From: a virus
Taxonomy: Duplodnaviria; Heunggongvirae; Uroviricota; Caudoviricetes
Direction: 5' to 3' (one strand)
Length of the DNA: 37,506 nucleotides
Virus record (IMG/VR): IMGVR_UViG_2718218098_000004
Every line of letters starts with the position of its first letter. Position 1 is the first letter of the stretch. Position numbers and translations under genes: made by a program. Of the stretch, positions 1 through 37,506 are shown in pieces. The notes under the pieces were generated by a model. That model saw only the letters and a list, made by a program, of their open reading frames with translations. It ran no database searches and was not told the DNA's origin.

Positions 1-2157
1 TTACAGCGTTGGGAAGTTTGTTGATAATGGTACTATTGCATATTCAATTTTTGTTGGTGGCTGATTTGCCGCGCTGAATGTTGAAAGGGCCTCAAGCACA
101 ATATACCCACTTCCATTGTATCCGGCTTTAAAGCAACTTTGCAGGTTTGCAATGGAAGTATCTCCTGGGTTTAAACGCTGGTCAATAGGGGGTTTAAGGT
201 CAGTTGCGTCGGCTCTTGCTGTTGCGTCATGCGCACCAGAAGACATGATATATGTAGCATAATTATTTTTTACACCTCCAGTCACTTTTATGTGGAGAAG
301 GTAAAGAGTGCGATCAGATGTAGAACCAGTCAATATCTGTTTATCAAGAGTAATTCGTACCTTTGAGCCATCAGATAACACAGGTAAAGACTTGCTTAAC
401 ATTGCTACGCCATTAACAGTATTATCATAACCATTTCCGATATAGTTACCTGAACCTACAAAAGCTGAGTTCATTCGCCAGATATCTTCTGCCGTAAATA
501 ACCCTGACGTAATGAAGTTACCTGTCCATACGTTTCTGTTTCTTTCTGGTCTTGCATTAAGCACCATTCCAACACCCCCGGCCATGAAGTTGCCAGATAT
601 AACTGCTCCTGACATATCGGTAGTGTTGATGCATTGGAGTCTTAGGTCTTTGTTAACACCAGGATCAAGAACCATTTGCATGGTATTGCTGTTGATACTA
701 ATTCCGGCACACCACGTGCCATTAAAACCGTTGTTATTGTTGTTTAACGCCTGTGAAGCGATGAAATTAAATATCCTCTGTTCTGAAGGATTTGTAGCAC
801 CTTTATAGTAGAAAACATTTCCTGTAATACTAACAAGAGAAGTTCTAAGGAATATAGCGAAATCGTTAAGCGGGTTTTCCTCAAAATGATAGATATTGTT
901 AGAAATAACTGAACGCCCACCAAGACCGACTCTAGTACTACCATCAAATTGCAATGACATCATTTTATTAGCTGTATTGACAAATCTGTTGGAAGTTATG
1001 TTTATTTCAAGCCCCCCAGTAAATGTATCCATCTCACACGCAGACTCAGCATTCCTGTTCATAAGTAAATTTCCAGAGAAAGCGCCTCCTATCGTCGATC
1101 CTCCGATTTTTATAATATCTGCATTCGGACCGGTCTGCATAAAAACATCAAAGGTGTTATTCGTTATGTGGAACATTGACTTGCGAGGAGTTCCAATGTC
1201 GACGGATGCAGTCGTGTTGCCAAGAATCATCAGATATGGATATACCTCACCCTGTTCACCTGACATTCCTGCATCAGAGATATACTGATCTGTGTTGTCA
1301 TCAGTCTTGCAGTAGTTATTATCAACTGAAATATGTACGCTTGTTGGGTCCTGACAGTTAACCATGATGTAGCCAACACCGCAGTTAAAGCATTGCATAT
1401 CTTTTATCACCACGCGCGTTGGTAAATTCGCCAGCCCATCAGGGTAATCATTGAAAATTACCTGAGGACGCTGGGTGTGGTATGCATTTGCGGTGAACTT
1501 ACCGCCGATAATCTCTACTGATTTTGCGCCAAGCGGATGGAAAATATAATCAATGCCATTGAAGGTAAATTCTCCAGTAGAAGCATCGATAATGATGTCT
1601 CCTGGGATGGTGATGGGGGCTGTTACATCGTACACACCTGATGCTACAACTCTCGTTTTGTTTGCAACCGCATAATTTACAGCTGCCTGTAATTTTTCTG
1701 ACGCATTACTTCCGGGGAATACCTCGGGGACAACCCATTTGATGGCATCCTGTACCGTGCCATATGGCATAATCCCAACAAGACCAGCGCCGTCTTGATT
1801 AGAAAGCCTAATCTCAAATTGATCAGGGTCGTACTTCAGCACATTAGGGAAATAGAACTGCTGTGATCCATATGCATCGTACACAGACATAGAATGACCT
1901 TGCACAGTTACAAACTTGGCAATCTGTCCGTTATATACCGGATATCCAGCAGCATTAATGATGATTGGTTGCGAAACAGGAACGTGAGAGCCATCTTCGT
2001 TCTCTACATAAACCTGAATCTGGTTTTCTGGATTTACGGGGTCCGTGTCAATTTTACCGATATAAATTTTGCCATTGGCAACCGCTTTAAAAGAACGCGC
2101 CATAGTGAAAAGTTGCGAAGGCATCGATACGATCACATTGGCTGTAATGTCTGTCAT
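1..2157 (-). CDS. Tailspike protein (P22 gene 9 family): conserved N-terminal head-binding domain fused to a divergent receptor-binding body
   Basis: First ~110 aa (MTDITANV...YDPDQF) match the head-binding domain shared by P22/Sf6/HK620 tailspikes as recalled; remainder differs from the P22 and HK620 bodies; GGAG upstream of ATG at 2155-2157. Confidence 0.9.
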   Translation of the reverse strand: MTDITANVIVSMPSQLFTMARSFKAVANGKIYIGKIDTDPVNPENQIQVYVENEDGSHVPVSQPIIINAAGYPVYNGQIAKFVTVQGHSMSVYDAYGSQQFYFPNVLKYDPDQFEIRLSNQDGAGLVGIMPYGTVQDAIKWVVPEVFPGSNASEKLQAAVNYAVANKTRVVASGVYDVTAPITIPGDIIIDASTGEFTFNGIDYIFHPLGAKSVEIIGGKFTANAYHTQRPQVIFNDYPDGLANLPTRVVIKDMQCFNCGVGYIMVNCQDPTSVHISVDNNYCKTDDNTDQYISDAGMSGEQGEVYPYLMILGNTTASVDIGTPRKSMFHITNNTFDVFMQTGPNADIIKIGGSTIGGAFSGNLLMNRNAESACEMDTFTGGLEINITSNRFVNTANKMMSLQFDGSTRVGLGGRSVISNNIYHFEENPLNDFAIFLRTSLVSITGNVFYYKGATNPSEQRIFNFIASQALNNNNNGFNGTWCAGISINSNTMQMVLDPGVNKDLRLQCINTTDMSGAVISGNFMAGGVGMVLNARPERNRNVWTGNFITSGLFTAEDIWRMNSAFVGSGNYIGNGYDNTVNGVAMLSKSLPVLSDGSKVRITLDKQILTGSTSDRTLYLLHIKVTGGVKNNYATYIMSSGAHDATARADATDLKPPIDQRLNPGDTSIANLQSCFKAGYNGSGYIVLEALSTFSAANQPPTKIEYAIVPLSTNFPTL

Positions 2158-2292: not shown

Positions 2293-2553
2293 ATGTACAG
2301 CAAATACGACGAGGCGCAGTTTCACTTGAGACTTCCGCATGAACTTCACGCGAAAATTAAGCAGCGTGCGAAGATGAATAACAGGTCGCTGAACTCAGAG
2401 ATAATTGCAGCGATTGAAGAATCATTGGATAAACAAAGCTCTGCATCAGTTTACATTGACGATGCAGAGCGTATGGCAGAACAACAATCTGATATGGTTA
2501 AGAAAATTGTCTTTGATACGCTCAAGGAGCTATATAAAAAAGACAGCAGCTAA
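2293..2553 (+). CDS. mnt: Mnt-like ribbon-helix-helix repressor (86 aa)
   Basis: C-terminal segment NDAERMAEQQSDMVKKIVFDTLKELYKK closely resembles P22 Mnt; N-terminal beta-strand region FHLRLP is RHH-like but diverged; only the last 86 codons of track ORF 1894-2553 are used because the upstream part overlaps the tailspike gene. Confidence 0.75.
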   Translation: MYSKYDEAQFHLRLPHELHAKIKQRAKMNNRSLNSEIIAAIEESLDKQSSASVYIDDAERMAEQQSDMVKKIVFDTLKELYKKDSS

Positions 2554-2573: not shown

Positions 2574-2651
2574 ATGCAAAGAGATATGCTGAACATTGCG
2601 TTCTACATATTTGGTTTTTGGACGTTCCTGGTGTTTGCGAAGCTATTCTGA
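2574..2651 (+). CDS. Candidate 25-aa hydrophobic peptide MQRDMLNIAFYIFGFWTFLVFAKLF directly downstream of mnt
   Basis: GGAGG 3 nt before ATG at 2574; one predicted transmembrane helix; overlaps the 3' end of the convergent ejection-protein gene by 9 nt; below the 60-aa track cutoff. Confidence 0.3.
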   Translation: MQRDMLNIAFYIFGFWTFLVFAKLF

Positions 2652-5036
2652 CAACGCATCAGACTTGGCACCCTGAGTAAGGGCGTTAATGGCCTTTTGC
2701 GCCTGCTGCATGGCTTTCTCAAACGCTGTTGATCCGCGTGGGGTGTTTGCCATTCGGAGCATTGCATTTCTGAATGGCTCGCTCTCATAGGCGCGAGTAA
2801 GAAGTCCGTAGCTTACTGCTGCGCCAGTTGTCGCCGGGTTCATTGCCGTCCCATATCCGATAATGAACGGGATGGTTTGCTGCCCTGTTGGTGTTGTTAC
2901 TGCCGCTTTTGCTGCCTGCTGAGTGGACTGAAGGTAGTTTTTCAATCCTTTCAGATAAGCGGCTTCCTGACCTTTAAATGTGATGCCAGTCTGGTTTTGC
3001 AGGATGTTAAGCTGTCGAAGGAACTGGTCAGGTGAACCACCTGATTTCTCTATCGCCTTTCCAATGATGCCATTGCGCATTTGCGCTCTTCCAACGCGAC
3101 CAACTGAGTTATACAGCGTCTTAATTTCCGATTTGTTCTTGCTGAATAGCATGTTGTTGACAACTTCCGGCGTCAGGTCGCCTTTCATGAGAACATTCTT
3201 CAGCCTGGTATTCTTTAGTTTCGCCGCTTCGTCAGCGTATACGGCATTGGCCTGCTGATATTTACGGAGAGTATCGTTGCCAAGATTCTGACCAATGGCA
3301 CCATTGATATCGTCTGTCATCGCCTTGTAAACGCGCTGAATGGCAGCATCGGAACGGTTTGGTAACACTGGTCGTTCACCCTTCACGTCCATTCTGAACT
3401 GGCTGCGCAGATCGCTTAATTGCTTCAAATCCAGATTTACCGGACCATCAGGACCAGCATTGCGAACAAGCTCATCACGATATGACTGAAGTTTTGAAAT
3501 AGTCTCGTTATCAGCAACCTTACCAAGCTTCTGCAGGTTAGATATTTCTGTATCAATCTGCTGAATTGCTCGCGCAGGCTGAATGTTTACTCCAGCCATA
3601 GCATTCTGAACCTGCTCCAGTCGATTACCGGCGGCACGACGAATTCCTGATGTTTTCGCTTTAAGGCTGTCAATAACAACAGATGGATCATACTCACCGA
3701 ATTTATCAGCAAATCTCTGCACCAACTGGCTTCTCGCTTCCTGTTGCGTTGCTCTCATCCCGCTTGTGCCAGCCAGGGGGATATTTTCCGCTGTCGTCTG
3801 CGCCATTTTCCCGACGCGGGAAGTAGGCTGTAACAGGTCTGTGGTGTGCAGAGGAACTCCTTCACGCTCTGCAAATCTGATAGCCTGCTGCGCTTCTGGC
3901 GCAATAGCACCACGAACGCCACGATAAGCAGCACCTAATCCACGTCCGGCAGCGTTAATAGCACCGCCAGCCAGCACACCAACGCCTAAATCGGTAGCGA
4001 GTGCTTCCGCATCATCTTTCATACTGTTTGCAGCAAGTGATCCAACTGCGTTTTCTGCGAGAAGGCGAGTTGCCCCCTGAGCAATTCGACCAGCAAGTGT
4101 TGGTGCCTGTGTTGCCGCTCTCTCAACGCCAGCAGGAGTGAGGTAAGGCAATGCTTCAGCAAATACCCTCCCCTCTGTCGTTTGTGGAGTCAGCGCGCCT
4201 TGCTGAAGGCCAAAGTCCTGCTCTAATCCCTGCGTTGTTACTCGTGGTGCTGGTTGATATGTACCATCGCCAATGCCGAGTTTACCGCCAGCCCAAGCCG
4301 CCGCGCTTGTTACAGCATCAGTGAGTTCAGCAGGTATGTTCGCTACGTTGATTCCTGCCTGTAGTAAGCCGCGCCCGGTTTCAGCAAGTCCATTACCAAG
4401 GTCAGACATTATTCCGCCTTGCTGCTGAACAGGTTTCGGTGCGACAGAACTTACGGGTTGAGGTGGCTGCTGACTGGCTGCCTGCTGCTCAATCTGAGCA
4501 AATGGATTATTTGGGTCTGACTGCACGCCTGATGCCGATACTTGTTCGGATGACTGTGCTTCCAGTTGTGCAAACGGGTTGTTAGGGTCTTGCTGAGGAT
4601 GTACCTTTGCAGAGGTGGCGCGCTGTTCGACTGTTGAGTCTGTCACCGGGTCACCCGCCCATTGAGCAAAGCGATCATCAACGTAACCGCGGCCTTCAGG
4701 TCCTGGCGTATATTCACCACGCTTTGCCTTCATAACGTTGCCGGGACCGTCGTGATAAGCCTGAAGAGCGTCACGCCAGTTACCAAACTGCTGGTACATC
4801 TTTGCCAGATAGCGCGCGCCAGCGTCAGCCTGATATTCGGGGTTTTGCATTTGCTCATCGGTATAACCCATATCACGCCATGTCCCAGGCATGACCTGAG
4901 TCAATCCTACAGCCCCGGCGGAGCTTACTGCGGCAGGGTTGTAAGAAGACTCCTTGGCACCCAGTGCAGTCATCAACCCTTCTGGCACACCGTAACGTGC
5001 GCCAGCCTGCTCTAACAAATCACGGTAATTAGCCAT
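2643..5036 (-). CDS. Ejection/DNA-transfer protein at the P22 gp16 position, with an N-terminal lytic transglycosylase (SLT) domain
   Basis: Position after the gp20-like gene; N-terminus carries SLT-like motifs (AKESSYNP, GLTQVMPGTW, AGARYL); internal duplicated DPNNPFAQ(L/I)E motif. Confidence 0.8.
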   Translation of the reverse strand: MANYRDLLEQAGARYGVPEGLMTALGAKESSYNPAAVSSAGAVGLTQVMPGTWRDMGYTDEQMQNPEYQADAGARYLAKMYQQFGNWRDALQAYHDGPGNVMKAKRGEYTPGPEGRGYVDDRFAQWAGDPVTDSTVEQRATSAKVHPQQDPNNPFAQLEAQSSEQVSASGVQSDPNNPFAQIEQQAASQQPPQPVSSVAPKPVQQQGGIMSDLGNGLAETGRGLLQAGINVANIPAELTDAVTSAAAWAGGKLGIGDGTYQPAPRVTTQGLEQDFGLQQGALTPQTTEGRVFAEALPYLTPAGVERAATQAPTLAGRIAQGATRLLAENAVGSLAANSMKDDAEALATDLGVGVLAGGAINAAGRGLGAAYRGVRGAIAPEAQQAIRFAEREGVPLHTTDLLQPTSRVGKMAQTTAENIPLAGTSGMRATQQEARSQLVQRFADKFGEYDPSVVIDSLKAKTSGIRRAAGNRLEQVQNAMAGVNIQPARAIQQIDTEISNLQKLGKVADNETISKLQSYRDELVRNAGPDGPVNLDLKQLSDLRSQFRMDVKGERPVLPNRSDAAIQRVYKAMTDDINGAIGQNLGNDTLRKYQQANAVYADEAAKLKNTRLKNVLMKGDLTPEVVNNMLFSKNKSEIKTLYNSVGRVGRAQMRNGIIGKAIEKSGGSPDQFLRQLNILQNQTGITFKGQEAAYLKGLKNYLQSTQQAAKAAVTTPTGQQTIPFIIGYGTAMNPATTGAAVSYGLLTRAYESEPFRNAMLRMANTPRGSTAFEKAMQQAQKAINALTQGAKSDALSE
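4490..4600. repeat. Imperfect tandem duplication inside the gp16-like gene (period about 72 nt)
   Basis: gcaaatggattatttgggtc at 4498-4517 and gcaaacgggttgttagggtc at 4570-4589, encoding the repeated DPNNPFAQ peptide. Confidence 0.5.
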
Positions 5037-6368
5037 TTACTGCCCCAAAGATGGAAGATATCCGTAGCGATTAATGAAGTCGATTGACAGCTCGGGGTGC
5101 TGCTTCAGGTAATCTATAGAAGCCTGAGGCGCTTCCACTCGCTTGATACCGTTTTGCTGAACGTACTTACCAACCGCCTCATTACGCTTCTGGTTGAGCG
5201 TGTTCAGGATGACGCCAGCGTTGCGACGAAAGGACTCCTCGCTCTGCGAGTTCTGCAGCGAACCAACAGCCTGGTCGAGCTTTTTGCCCTCGGCATCAGA
5301 AAGTGCGCCCATGCCTCGCATGGCCTGAACCGCTGTCAGGTATGCTTGTGATTTAAAGGTATCAAGTCGTGCCTGAGTGTCTGCAGCCTGTGAGCCTGGA
5401 ACGTTGGGGATTACTCCACGTAAGCCTGTAATGCTCTTAAGTGAAGGAGAACTAACGATATCGTTCAGAGTGAACATGCTGGTTGTGAGGGTGTTGATGC
5501 CGTCTTTGTAGCCATCATTTAGCGCTTGCTGCTTCTGCTGCAACTGCTGGTTGTTGGCTGCTATGCGGCTCTGTATTTCCTGGCGCTTCAGGTCGTTAGT
5601 TTCTGCTGATAGCATCCGGTCAAGGCGCTTATTTTCGTTGTTAATGCGGTTTGTTTCTGCGTCCAGATTAATGCGCTGCTGACCTAAATTCGCCTGGATA
5701 TCTTGTCCGCGCATTGTGATTGCCTGATTCCGAGCGGCGGTTTGCGAATCCAGATCCTGACCGCGCATGGTAACCTGGCGACCCTGCATTTTATCCTGTA
5801 GGTCAAAGTATTTTTCTGGCCCGAGACTGTTCATCCCCAGGTGATCGACAAATTCGCCGAACTGCCGCGGGTTCTGTTGGTACATCTGAGCGACGTCATG
5901 AGGATTAACGCCAACACGAGCTAACTCACCGGCGTTGTTTTGCAGCCATGATTGCATTGCTTCTGGAGACGATGACGCAAGGCGTGCGCCAGCCGCTAAG
6001 GTGCCGATAGAATTACGCTGCTCTTCATCGATGAATCCCATGCCTTTACGAACGGATTCAATCTGGTCTGGATATTGAGTAGCCAACTGACGCAAAGCTC
6101 CGCGATCACCAGAAGCATAAGCATTAGCGTATGCCTGCTGAAATTCTTTCTGCCGCTGAGCCTGCTTTTCCTGCTGAAACACCCCCGCAATACCTGAAAG
6201 GCCTTGCAAAGCAGTCAGCCCAACATTGTTAGCGCCTGAACGCTCAATATCATTGTTCTGCCTGATAAGCTGAAGCGTATTGCCGATGTCATTTACGCTC
6301 GGAGCGTTTGAGTTGACGCCGCCGATACCAGCCAACAATCCGCCGTTTGTTCCTTGCCAAGTAGCCAT
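5037..6368 (-). CDS. Ejection protein, P22 gp20-like
   Basis: Size (443 aa) and position between the gp7-like and gp16-like genes; N-terminus MATWQGTNGGLLAGIGG resembles P22 gp20 as recalled. Confidence 0.75.
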   Translation of the reverse strand: MATWQGTNGGLLAGIGGVNSNAPSVNDIGNTLQLIRQNNDIERSGANNVGLTALQGLSGIAGVFQQEKQAQRQKEFQQAYANAYASGDRGALRQLATQYPDQIESVRKGMGFIDEEQRNSIGTLAAGARLASSSPEAMQSWLQNNAGELARVGVNPHDVAQMYQQNPRQFGEFVDHLGMNSLGPEKYFDLQDKMQGRQVTMRGQDLDSQTAARNQAITMRGQDIQANLGQQRINLDAETNRINNENKRLDRMLSAETNDLKRQEIQSRIAANNQQLQQKQQALNDGYKDGINTLTTSMFTLNDIVSSPSLKSITGLRGVIPNVPGSQAADTQARLDTFKSQAYLTAVQAMRGMGALSDAEGKKLDQAVGSLQNSQSEESFRRNAGVILNTLNQKRNEAVGKYVQQNGIKRVEAPQASIDYLKQHPELSIDFINRYGYLPSLGQ

Positions 6369-6377
6369 GATTACCCC

Positions 6378-7070
6378 TTAAAACAACGAGCCAAGCAATC
6401 CGATACCAGCACCAATGCCAGCGCCCCAAGGCGTTGATGTTCCCAAAAGGCTGGCAAGACCTGCACCGGCAATCGCACCGGACGTTCCGCCGCTAATTGC
6501 TGTCTGAAGACTTGATGGTTTGTTGGCATTAGCAGCGGCAAGAGCTGCGCTTTGCTGTGCAATGCTGCTCATGTTGTTGGCGTACGTCTGCCCGGCGTTT
6601 GCCTGACCTTGCAGAGCACCAAGCCCAACGTTTGCCAGATTGTTGTAATTGCTCATCTGGTTTGATAACCAAGACTGACCGAGAGTCGGCGCGATCGTAG
6701 CCAGTTGATTGCTTGTGGCTGTCGAACCAAGTCCTCCCGTAGCCTCCGCAGCAGCAAGACTCTGGTAACGAGCCTGACCTGCAAGGTCTTTATACTGCTG
6801 AGAGTTGTAATACTGATTAAGTGCCTGCCCCTGACCTTCTAAACTGGAAAGGTTCTGAAGCTGGTTAACATACTGCTCCGCAAGCGGCGTGAACGGAGCA
6901 AGGTTTTTCATGATCGTCTGCCACTGCTGATTTTGCAGGTCTGCGGCATACTTCTGGGCTTCTGCTGCATACTTTGCGCTTTTATCAGAGCTACCACCTT
7001 TCCCGCCTTTTTCATGGCACCAAGGTTCCTCGCCGCGCAGTTTTCTGCCCAGCTTAAATGCATATAACAT
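6378..7070 (-). CDS. Ejection protein, P22 gp7-like
   Basis: 230 aa; N-terminus MLYAFKLGRKLRGEEP...EKGGKGGSS resembles P22 gp7; Gly/Ala-rich C-terminus. Confidence 0.75.
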   Translation of the reverse strand: MLYAFKLGRKLRGEEPWCHEKGGKGGSSDKSAKYAAEAQKYAADLQNQQWQTIMKNLAPFTPLAEQYVNQLQNLSSLEGQGQALNQYYNSQQYKDLAGQARYQSLAAAEATGGLGSTATSNQLATIAPTLGQSWLSNQMSNYNNLANVGLGALQGQANAGQTYANNMSSIAQQSAALAAANANKPSSLQTAISGGTSGAIAGAGLASLLGTSTPWGAGIGAGIGLLGSLF

Positions 7071-7072
7071 GG

Positions 7073-7531
7073 CTATCTCCCGTGATTCAGGAAGTCGATT
7101 AGTTCTTCGCGTGTGGCGCTGTAAAAAGTCACGTCATCCACGCCTTTAAAGTATTTCTTGATGGTTCCGACACGCTTAAGGCCAATCATTGCGCAGTAAA
7201 TCTGCCCGTGGCGGAATTTGCGTGCGGCGAACGATGTGACGCACTGAACGGTGGTGTTAGTCAGAATGTATCGCCAGAACGCCAGCCCGATTTCCTTGCT
7301 GAAGCCGCGAATCTCTGGCAGGTACATGGCGTGGCAATCGAATGTCAGCGGCTGAATCTCCTGATAGTAAACAATGCCGCCAAACTGACCGTGCACGTTA
7401 ACCTCAAAGTAACGGCATTCAGGCTTGTAGTCGTATCCATCACCGTTGTTGCTCCCGGCAATAATGTCAGGGTGATTTCCGACTGCTTCGATCAGGTCGA
7501 TGTTTCGCGTTGGTTTGAACTGAATCATCAC
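7073..7531 (-). CDS. P22 gp14-like morphogenesis protein
   Basis: 152 aa, syntenic between the tail-needle and gp7-like genes; ATGA overlap with the upstream gene. Confidence 0.65.
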
Positions 7532-8376
7532 TGCTCCGCGATTATCTTGATGGTTGTGGCAGTAAACGCCGCCCCATTTGACTGAATGGTTAACGTACTG
7601 CCATTTGTGGCAAGAAAGCCGTCTTTATCCACGCTGAAGAACGTAGCTAACAGGATGTTATCGGTTGTTGTAGCCGAGTTACGACTGCTTACCAGTGTGT
7701 CAGGAACAGAGCCGGAAAAGGTTAGCTGCATTGATCTGTTGGCGGTTCCGCTGGGCCACGTCCCGACGATCGACAGCTTGAAGAACAAGGTTTTGTTCTC
7801 GTTGAACACAACCATCTTGTTGTTAACGGTGTCGAAGAATGGTGCCAACGAGCCTGATGACGGCGTGAGCGTTTTCAGTAGGCTAACAAGGTTGGTCGGC
7901 GCTGTCGGGATGGTTACAGATACACCAGAGTAAACAACCTCTGACTTCTTGCGTGTGGTTGCATACTCCAGAGCATCAATGCGCGTTTCATGGTCTGAAA
8001 CCTGCGACTCCAGCGCCTGAACTCTGGTATCAAGCGACGCAATATCGCTTTCATTCTGAGTGATTCGTGTTTCATGTTCCTGAAGAGTTGATTCTGCCTG
8101 GCTGATTCGCTCCTCATGATTAACAAGCGTTGCTTCCGCAACAGAAATTCGCTGCTCATGGTCAGCGAGAATCACATCCTGCTCATCGTTCCTGACTTGT
8201 GCGTCATAAGCGCCCTGTCCGGCCTCGTTGGCCTTGTTCGCCACGTTACCAACATCAGTACCCTGTGCGATAACGTACAGCAGATATGACTGCGAGAAGA
8301 TATTGCGTGGAAGAACTGATGTATCGAGCCGCGTAGCCTGGACGATTACCGGCACATTGAGATTCGAATCAGCCAT
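7528..8376 (-). CDS. Tail needle protein (P22 gp26 family) with an extended C-terminal knob-like domain
   Basis: N-terminus [43 protein letters not shown] matches gp26; central heptad-like HE(E/T)RI repeats; 282 aa versus about 233 in P22. Confidence 0.85.
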
Positions 8377-17475: not shown

Positions 17476-17551
17476 ATCATGCTCCGGTAGTGAACAGGTC
17501 TAACGCTTCCTTCGATTTACGCACCGCTTCGATAGTGCGGGTCGTGATATC

Positions 17552-17719
17552 TTAATTAGCGCCGCCTGACTGGAAGTGAATTTTGAATAGCTCAAGCTTC
17601 AACTCGTCAGTGCCGATGAATTGAAATGCTTCTTCTGCGGCTGCGTTCTGGTTCATGACCAGTTTGTAAATCTCTAACTGGAATTTCTGTTCTTCAGTCA
17701 TGGGAATAATCTCTGCCAT
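17552..17719 (-). CDS. Candidate small ORF (55 aa, MAEIIPMTEEQKFQLEIYKLVMNQ...)
   Basis: GGAG 6 nt before ATG at 17717-17719; reading continues in frame for 24 more codons after the TAA, so it may be a nonsense-interrupted remnant. Confidence 0.3.
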   Translation of the reverse strand: MAEIIPMTEEQKFQLEIYKLVMNQNAAAEEAFQFIGTDELKLELFKIHFQSGGAN

Positions 17720-36236: not shown

Positions 36237-36455
36237 ATGTACTTGACACTTCAGGAGTGGAACGCACGCCAGCGACGTCCAAGAAGCCTTGAAACAGTTC
36301 GTCGATGGGTTCGGGAATGCAGGATATTCCCACCTCCGGTTAAGGATGGAAGAGAGTATCTGTTCCACGAATCAGCGGTAAAAGTTGACTTAAATCGACC
36401 AGTAACAGGTAGCCTTTTGAAGAGGATCAGAAATGGGAAGAAGGCGAAGTCATGA
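36237..36455 (+). CDS. xis: Excisionase (lambda Xis-like)
   Basis: 72 aa, near-identical to lambda Xis as recalled. Confidence 0.9.
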   Translation: MYLTLQEWNARQRRPRSLETVRRWVRECRIFPPPVKDGREYLFHESAVKVDLNRPVTGSLLKRIRNGKKAKS

Positions 36456-37506
36456 GCGCCGGGATTTACCCCCTAACCTTTATATAAGAAACAATGGATA
36501 TTACTGCTACAGGGACCCAAGGACGGGTAAAGAGTTTGGATTAGGCCGAGACAGGAGGATAGCAATCACTGAAGCAATACAGGCCAATATTGAGTTACTC
36601 TCAGACAGCGGACGCAAATCACTGATAGACAGAATTAAAGGCGGTGACGCAATCACTCTTCATGTGTGGCTTGACCGATATGAAAGAATCCTCACCGAAA
36701 GGGGGATCAGGCCGAAAACTCTACTCGACTACGCCAGCAAAATCAGGGCAATCCGAAGAAAATTGCCGGACAAACCGCTCACTGACATATCAACGAAAGA
36801 TGTGGCAGCAATGCTAAACACCTACGTAGCAGAAGGTAAAGCAGCTTCCGCAAAATTAATCAGGTCAACCCTTGTTGACGTTTTTCGTGAAGCAATAGCC
36901 GAGGGGCATGTGGCAACGAATCCGGTAACAGCAACCCGTACAGCAAAGTCAGAAGTAAGGCGCTCAAGGCTGACAGCTAATGAGTATGTCGAGATTTACC
37001 ATGCAGCCGAACCTCTCCCAATCTGGCTGAGGCTGGCAATGGATTTGGCTGTCGTTACAGGGCAGAGAGTGGGCGATTTGTGCAAAATGAAGTGGTCAGA
37101 CATAAACGACAACCATCTTCACATTGAGCAGGGTAAAACAGGGGTTAAGCTCGCCATTCCGCTGACGCTAGCGATTGACGCGCTCAATATCTCATTGGCT
37201 GATACACTACAGAAATGCAGGGAGGCCAGCAGCAGTGAAACTATAATCGCATCAAAGCATCACGATCCGCTTTCCCCGAAAACAGTATCAAAGTATTTTA
37301 CAAAGGCGAGAAATGCATCTGGACTCTCATTTGATGGAAACCCGCCAACATTCCATGAACTGCGTAGCCTGTCAGCGAGGCTATACCGGAACCAGATTGG
37401 CGATAAGTTTGCTCAACGTCTTCTCGGGCATAAATCAGATTCAATGGCGGCGCGGTATAGGGACAGCCGTGGACGGGAATGGGACAAAATTGAAATCGAC
37501 AAATGA
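36433..37506 (+). CDS. int: Tyrosine integrase (lambda Int-like)
   Basis: 357 aa; N-terminus MGRRRSHERRDLPPNLYIRNNGYYCYRDPRTGKEFGLGRDRRIA and the catalytic C-terminal region (HELRSLSARLY...LLGHKSD) resemble lambda Int; overlaps xis by 23 nt as in lambda. Confidence 0.95.
   Translation: MGRRRSHERRDLPPNLYIRNNGYYCYRDPRTGKEFGLGRDRRIAITEAIQANIELLSDSGRKSLIDRIKGGDAITLHVWLDRYERILTERGIRPKTLLDYASKIRAIRRKLPDKPLTDISTKDVAAMLNTYVAEGKAASAKLIRSTLVDVFREAIAEGHVATNPVTATRTAKSEVRRSRLTANEYVEIYHAAEPLPIWLRLAMDLAVVTGQRVGDLCKMKWSDINDNHLHIEQGKTGVKLAIPLTLAIDALNISLADTLQKCREASSSETIIASKHHDPLSPKTVSKYFTKARNASGLSFDGNPPTFHELRSLSARLYRNQIGDKFAQRLLGHKSDSMAARYRDSRGREWDKIEIDK

Follow-up and report, generated by a model that had tools for sequence, protein, structure and literature searches.

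The 37,506-nt stretch of viral DNA analysed here (hereafter the window; IMG/VR record IMGVR_UViG_2718218098_000004, class Caudoviricetes) opens, on the minus strand, with a complete gene for a tailspike of 718 amino acids (aa; window 1..2157). We conclude, at a probability that we put at roughly 0.72, that the protein is the spike with which a P22-like temperate podovirus binds and destroys its receptor, and that the mobile β-helix body of this spike binds O-antigen of the O153/O178 genotype and cleaves it as an endoglycosidase. The window is exactly one P22-like prophage of Escherichia coli M9/M6, running from the integrase gene (36433-37506) to the tailspike stop codon. When the 2,157 bases were compared by megablast with 5,426 complete E. 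coli genomes, the set used throughout for host association, they were found to be 100% identical in the mouse isolates M9 and M6 and 93.4% identical in the rat isolate E62, and the full-length gene was recovered at this level in no other complete genome.

The reading frame runs from an ATG start to a stop codon at window 1-3, as seen in both the list of open reading frames (ORFs) and the translation, and is far above chance expectation. We regard it as genuine because other genomes carry it as an annotated, conserved gene, with a ratio of non-synonymous to synonymous substitution rates (dN/dS) well below 1 against relatives; the 100% identical copy at NZ_CP010196.1 955340-957496 is annotated as ‘phage head-binding domain-containing protein’ (WP_073528019.1). 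An earlier note, made from the letters of this DNA, had placed a P22-like head-binding domain in the first ~110 residues, and this assignment is borne out: PF09008 (Head_binding) matches residues 1-113 (window 1819..2157, minus strand) over profile positions 1-113 of 113 with E=4.5e-66 and 220 bits (Pfam cut-off 24 bits), and phmmer, run against every PDB sequence, aligns the protein with Sf6 gp14 (7sg7) over residues 1-119 and with the P22 tailspike (8tvr, 2xc1) over residues 1-142, as well as with isolated head-binding fragments. By homology to the P22 and Sf6 domains, residues 1-113 dock the tailspike onto the tail hub. The junction and neck that follow (residues 114-137; window 1747..1818, minus strand) are of low per-residue confidence in the structural model described below (pLDDT 52-64), and the joint between adaptor and body lies just past a DPDQF motif.

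Beyond this joint the similarity to well-studied tailspikes stops. In BLASTP comparisons with the HK620 and Sf101 tailspikes it ends at about residue 118, just after DPDQF; phmmer detects no significant P22 or Sf6 similarity past residue ~118, and nothing in the PDB is matched past the tailspike N-terminus (residues 1-142 at most). A Pfam search of residues 114-718 matched no family, and no SGNH/GDSL hydrolase domain was found by Pfam in the 718-aa protein. The expectation of the earlier note that the body would be unlike those of P22 and HK620 is in good agreement with these results, as is its description of a Gly/Asn/Ser/Thr-rich β-helix glycanase: the body contains 9.8% G, 9.6% N, 7.9% T and 7.4% S, and an AlphaFold2 model of residues 114-718, run as a monomer with an alignment of 24 homologues (mean pLDDT 83.7, predicted template modelling (TM) score, pTM, 0.83), consists of a long series of short β-strands followed by a C-terminal β-rich domain. 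The predicted right-handed parallel β-helix, the putative O-antigen binding and cleaving domain, covers residues ~150-565 (window 463..1710, minus strand), and the C-terminal domain, presumably a trimer-capping β-sandwich, residues ~566-718 (window 4..462, minus strand), both with approximate boundaries. Foldseek searches of PDB and BFVD with this model returned only tailspikes and depolymerases, at ~10% identity and TM scores of at most 0.47, with HK620 the best. The fold class predicted by the model, a β-helix, is clear; it has no near structural relative, and the chemistry cannot be deduced from it. As a separate observation, phrog_8280 (‘tail spike protein with colonic acid degradation activity’) scores ~90 bits above the families that match the head-binding domain alone, and its alignment to the tailspike extends over residues 1-510, which hints at remote body homology with another P22-like tailspike family.

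The evidence for the target comes from the hosts. The M9 O-antigen cluster lies between gndA and galF, with wzx and wzy annotated as ‘O153/O178 family’ and the gnu epimerase gene upstream of galF; gnu is a marker for the GalNAc-initiated O178 unit (PMC7685785). M9 wzy is found in only 16 of the 5,426 complete genomes, and the body in six (M9, M6, E62, the O178:H19 strain 2012C-4431, CM185151 and BKQWHE), with megablast and sensitive blastn giving the same six. All six carriers fall within the 16 wzy-positive genomes (hypergeometric P = 2.3e-16; P ~1e-8 if just three lineages are counted as independent). They come from mouse, rat and human hosts, and their prophages, which encode different integrases, occupy two attachment (att) sites, torS-torT and argW. 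Inferring from prophage hosts which serogroup a tailspike targets is accepted practice (PMC10408124). Because of this association, taken together with that practice, we consider it most likely that the body recognises O-antigen of the O153/O178 genotype, which fits the earlier suggestion that this region sets O-antigen specificity.

The body would bind the O-antigen along the helix and cleave it as an endoglycosidase, the virion thereby working its way down to the outer membrane. Lyases act by β-elimination, which requires uronic acid in the substrate. Since the O153/O178 O-antigen is reportedly made of ribofuranose (Ribf), galactose (Gal), N-acetylglucosamine (GlcNAc) and N-acetylgalactosamine (GalNAc) and is not known to contain uronic acid, cleavage would proceed by hydrolysis rather than by lyase action. 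Ribf, GlcNAc and GalNAc are listed among its sugars in PMC7685785, which lends partial support to the absence of uronic acid. A conserved core was found at about residues 345-530 across 45 very distant relatives. It contains a ladder of Asn residues (N345, N363, N367, N369, N390, N394, N421, N447, N491 and N523) and several conserved charged positions: D347, in the motif N-A-D-I-I-K (codon at window 1117..1119, minus strand), is Asp in 43/45 distant and 37/37 close relatives; K350 is kept in 44/45 distant relatives; and within E375-M376-D377, in the motif NRNAESACEMDTFTGG (codons at window 1027..1035, minus strand), D377 is Asp in 45/45 distant and 38/38 close relatives, and E375 is invariant within the close family. 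Judged by their conservation, D347, E375 and D377 stand out as the leading candidates for catalytic carboxylates, with D347 being alternatively a candidate for substrate binding. D347 and D377 are separated by 30 residues, roughly one helix turn, a spacing that we take to be like that of the catalytic pairs of HK620 (D339/E372) and P22.

The body belongs to a rare β-helix family that is uncharacterised yet already catalogued, and the gene itself is a genuine P22-type tailspike gene. Residues 19-716 match phrog_29018 (PHROGs v4, ‘unknown function’) over profile positions 1-691 of 694 (E=0, 1192 bits), and the bodies of eight relatives that have other adaptors are matched by this profile too. 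Among 5.8 billion clusters, 35 relatives were found (clusters at 90% identity), and when 1.84 billion representatives were searched exhaustively with a profile there were 57 matches at E<=1e-3, 12 of them at E<=1e-30; among isolated phages the body is present only in vB_EcoS_swi2. In Pfam, the distant relatives are mostly silent, with one PF12708 match and one GDSL fusion. The earlier statement that the body was not recognised therefore stands insofar as no characterised protein matches it, the closest phage protein being the uncharacterised swi2 gp01 at 89% identity; it does not stand in the sense of the body being unprecedented, since it is phrog_29018 and is represented by about 35 clusters.

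At least six N-terminal adaptor types precede the body among the relatives, including the PF18668 TSP1/Gp66-type of swi2 gp01, phrog_1640 in P0003, phrog_7992/18484 in P0016, phrog_24271/12242 in P0021 and P0022 and a phrog_24092-type tail-fibre N-terminus in P0025; P0013 is located within a swi2-like siphovirus tail module. In BLASTP comparisons with the 35 relatives, nearly all hybrids have the start of the shared body at query residues 114-118, behind unrelated N-termini, and this joint is the classical adaptor/body recombination point. Further exchange is apparent within the body. The M9 and E62 tailspike genes are 99-100% identical save for the last 88 codons (89%) and a sharply bounded central patch at gene nt ~1025-1340 (aa ~342-447; window 818..1133, minus strand), which contains D347, E375 and D377 and is 71% identical at the DNA level and 78% at the aa level. 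Within the patch the proportions of synonymous and non-synonymous differences (pS and pN) are 0.78 and 0.15, respectively, whereas the synonymous substitution rate (dS) in the flanks is 0.008-0.056. Rapid local evolution of the patch is ruled out by the saturation of its synonymous sites next to almost identical flanks, and for the same reason the patch is, on this comparison of alleles, an old diverged allele imported by recombination. Compared with M9, the patch is 75-79% identical in other family members and 57-61% in the O178-type sub-lineage, with only P0001 being 100% identical; the E62 and swi2 patches share 90% DNA identity with each other. D347, E375 and D377 are all retained in spite of this divergence.

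A second internal breakpoint lies at residue ~290 (window 1288..1290, minus strand; approximate), where BLASTP and sliding-window identity agree and where the megablast matches to 2012C-4431, CM185151 and BKQWHE stop (window 1288). These three, together with P0019 and P0020, form a second sub-lineage. The stretch up to residue ~290 has ~96-100% DNA identity to M9, against ~60% beyond it; figures of about 99% before and 53-65% after this residue were also obtained for the sub-lineage. The earlier note had called the region a known recombination hotspot, and the near-constant joint at residues 114-118 plus two internal breakpoints bears this out. The body is a mobile cassette: recombination at the neck joins it to different virion adaptors, and exchange also takes place inside it.

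Several points weigh against an O153/O178-directed endoglycosidase. The six carriers represent perhaps 3-5 independent lineages, M6 and M9 being near-clones; the presence of a prophage is evidence of a past infection, not of the surface glycan used; and copies of the body occur in records labelled Citrobacter freundii (88% identical) and Hafnia paralvei (39-51%). The absence of uronic acid from the O153/O178 repeat, which reportedly consists of Ribf, Gal and GlcNAc/GalNAc, is only partly supported by PMC7685785. When the family profile was aligned to HK620 with hhalign, only the head-binding domain and neck aligned, and D339/E372 were not equated with positions in the body. In the literature on swi2, O178 or O153 tailspikes we found no enzymatic or binding study of the body family, and the view that genuine O153 has the same gene cluster as O178 is contested by DebRoy et al. 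The small number of genomes, the near-identity of M6 and M9 and the identical wzy and acyltransferase sequences of the three O178:H19-type carriers would also suit an association that is a by-product of the shared ancestry or ecology of six strains, with a receptor unrelated to the serogroup. We hold this to be highly improbable: the hosts are mouse, rat (China) and humans, the two att sites go with different integrases, wzy identity ranges from 99.3% to 100%, two body sub-lineages (~60% identity past residue 290) both map to one serogroup genotype, and the chance probability is still ~1e-8 when three lineages are counted.

Turning to activity, a body that merely binds the O-antigen or another receptor, without enzymatic activity, would be compatible with a fold that leaves the chemistry open; we find this improbable in view of the 43-45 of 45 very distant relatives that keep D347, K350 and D377, the invariance of E375 in the close family and purifying selection throughout the core (dN/dS well below 1). 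To our knowledge, moreover, all characterised P22-like tailspikes of this architecture (P22, Sf6 and HK620) are endoglycosidases. Quite improbable, in our estimation, is a polysaccharide lyase or epimerase-like enzyme with colanic acid, a K capsule or another acidic surface polymer, and not O-antigen, as its substrate: the likeness of the fold to K5 lyase and PL6-like lyase tailspikes, which could be taken to favour it, is generic, and the host association points to the O-antigen genotype.

Read as an endoglycosidase of the O153/O178 O-antigen, the M9 tailspike can be set beside named systems. The endorhamnosidase Sf6 gp14 shares with it a head-binding domain that is nearly identical over residues 1-119 (7sg7) and the succession of adaptor, β-helix and C-terminal domain, and in the generally known Sf6 layout, as in M9, the tailspike stands beside an O-antigen acyltransferase in a conversion slot near att. 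The two differ in their bodies, which have no detectable sequence similarity, in their targets (the S. flexneri Y O-antigen versus predicted O153/O178) and in the acyltransferase, Sf6 Oac being AT3-only and the M9 enzyme having two domains, AT3 and SGNH. The HK620 tailspike, an endo-N-acetylglucosaminidase of O18A1, has ~10% sequence identity to the M9 body. Far closer is gp01 of the siphovirus swi2 (Swiduovirus), which is 89% identical over residues 114-718 without a gap and matches the same phrog_29018, but carries its PF18668 TSP1/Gp66-type N-terminus on a siphovirus tail; it differs from M9 most in the central patch (70% DNA identity). The serotype of the swi2 host is not on record, and gp01 is uncharacterised in the literature that we found.

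The only O153-degrading tailspike with experimental proof that we found is TSP3 of AV101 (Agtrevirus; PMC10791037). Like the M9 spike, TSP3 is a modular β-helix tailspike, with a receptor-binding domain that also occurs in E. coli prophages, and the nominal target serogroups of the two may be the same or related. Kinship of the two was considered and rejected: BLASTP against TSP3 (WJJ54145.1) gives E=0.12, and hhalign a probability of 59% confined to the neck. AV101 is also absent from the tblastn matches to the body at E<=1, although it is part of the phage collection searched. Being unrelated in sequence to TSP3, the body would therefore represent an independent solution for the O153 antigen; alternatively, the ‘O153’ of AV101 may be the other O153 genotype of DebRoy et al.

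The tailspike gene is accompanied by a convergent gene for a 651-aa acyltransferase with AT3 (PF01757) and SGNH (PF19040) domains, which lies 48 bp past the tailspike stop, outside the window (NZ_CP010196.1 957545-959500; 9997-11952 in the M9 locus L002). It occupies the slot where Sf101 has its O-acetyltransferase. In Sf6, the O-acetyltransferase gene oac lies in the same lysogenic-conversion slot, and by analogy the M9 enzyme probably acetylates the O-antigen of the lysogen, thereby denying it to phages that carry the same spike. The AT3+SGNH gene is present in 3 of the 5,426 complete genomes, exactly the carriers of the M9/E62-type spike, with the E62 copy being 97% identical; beside the O178:H19-type spike there is instead an unrelated AT3-only enzyme of 335 aa, whose gene is confined to the three genomes with that spike. 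In P0019, a head-binding domain and an O178-type body are followed by a C-terminal GDSL/SGNH esterase of ~235 aa (residues ~712-946), and the siphovirus-type P0013 has the same extension at residues ~725-959; in the distant relative P0046 the esterase is N-terminal to the helix. The esterase-fused spikes P0019 (L013 2625-5465) and P0013 (L011 10001-12880) may be deacetylase-plus-glycanase proteins. As read from the alignment, the AT3-SGNH enzyme adjacent to P0019 (L013 5535-7484) is ~98% identical to that of M9 (L002 9997-11949) over the AT3 half and ~35-40% identical over the periplasmic SGNH half, which indicates a domain swap within the conversion enzyme.

Three pairings are thus seen: the M9/E62-type body with a first AT3-SGNH enzyme (a); the O178:H19-type body with the unrelated AT3-only enzyme; and the O178-type body fused to a C-terminal SGNH esterase with a second enzyme (b), which has the AT3 half of (a) and a swapped SGNH half. 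It is tempting, albeit rather doubtful, to view body and adjacent O-acyltransferase as ‘cut and mask’ cassettes whose matched halves diversify together on one O-antigen genotype, the pattern being drawn from a small sample. A variant arrangement occurs in AP025035.1 (labelled Citrobacter freundii; L015), where the 88% identical tailspike, at 6001-8157, lies beside torS, and a 316-aa SGNH-only ORF (L015 8210-9160) takes the place of the AT3-SGNH acyltransferase; the conversion gene may be truncated there.

The remainder of the prophage is organised as follows. In M9 it lies between torT and torS, the latter being a pseudogene interrupted by a stop codon, and the M9 annotation gives portal, scaffold, coat, gp4, gp10, needle, ejection proteins, an Arc-family repressor and the tailspike, in this order. 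Both in M9 and in E62 the tailspike gene is the last of the late region, past the ejection genes and an immI (arc/mnt) remnant. The Arc/Mnt-family repressor gene of this remnant (window 2293-2553, plus strand), between the tailspike and ejection-protein genes, is kept in E62 and beside P0019 and is absent from the locus of the O178:H19 strain. The ejection protein at the gp20 position (window 2643-5036, minus strand), annotated with a lytic transglycosylase domain, has 797 aa in M9 and 665 aa in E62. Window ~4424-5832 has no blastn match to the E62 prophage, which elsewhere is ~95% identical; another module has therefore been replaced there. An 84-bp remnant of the 3′ end of an argW-type intS is kept in M9 beside the acyltransferase gene (L002 9759-9842, outside the window) and also matches the O178:H19 locus. 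Given that the M9 prophage is inserted at torS-torT with a different integrase, the integrase module has been replaced. The M9 record annotates a DUF2560-family gene that precedes the terminase genes (window 17477-17719, minus strand) as a pseudogene, on account of an internal stop.

Promoter and terminator scans around the tailspike gene gave counts that were not above those for shuffled sequence. A perfect 12-bp inverted repeat, TTGTGCGCACTA and TAGTGCGCACAA around a 13-nt loop (L002 11963-11999, outside the window), was spotted by eye between the convergent stop codons of the tailspike and acyltransferase genes and is likely a bidirectional terminator; the consensus terminator scanner missed it because the 13-nt loop exceeds the accepted 3-8 nt.

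The established view of how tailspikes work is unchanged by these findings. What they provide is a testable prediction of O153/O178 specificity, a set of candidate catalytic residues and modular exchange resolved at three scales. Shiga-toxin-producing and enterotoxigenic E. coli are among the members of O178 and O153, and a serogroup-specific tailspike would be a ready reagent for typing, detection or use as a depolymerase; the body family would also add an independent receptor-binding scaffold for the O153 antigen. If the pairing of spikes with acyltransferases is as suggested above, the cut-and-mask cassettes would record an arms race of acetylation and de-acetylation in which the esterase-fused spikes are the counter-move that strips the mask, and acetylation by prophage enzymes could play a part in the contested serological distinction of O153 from O178. 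For the family as a whole, modularity is apparent at three levels: adaptor swaps across podoviruses, siphoviruses and other phages, replacement of a patch around the putative active site, and co-inheritance with an acyltransferase.

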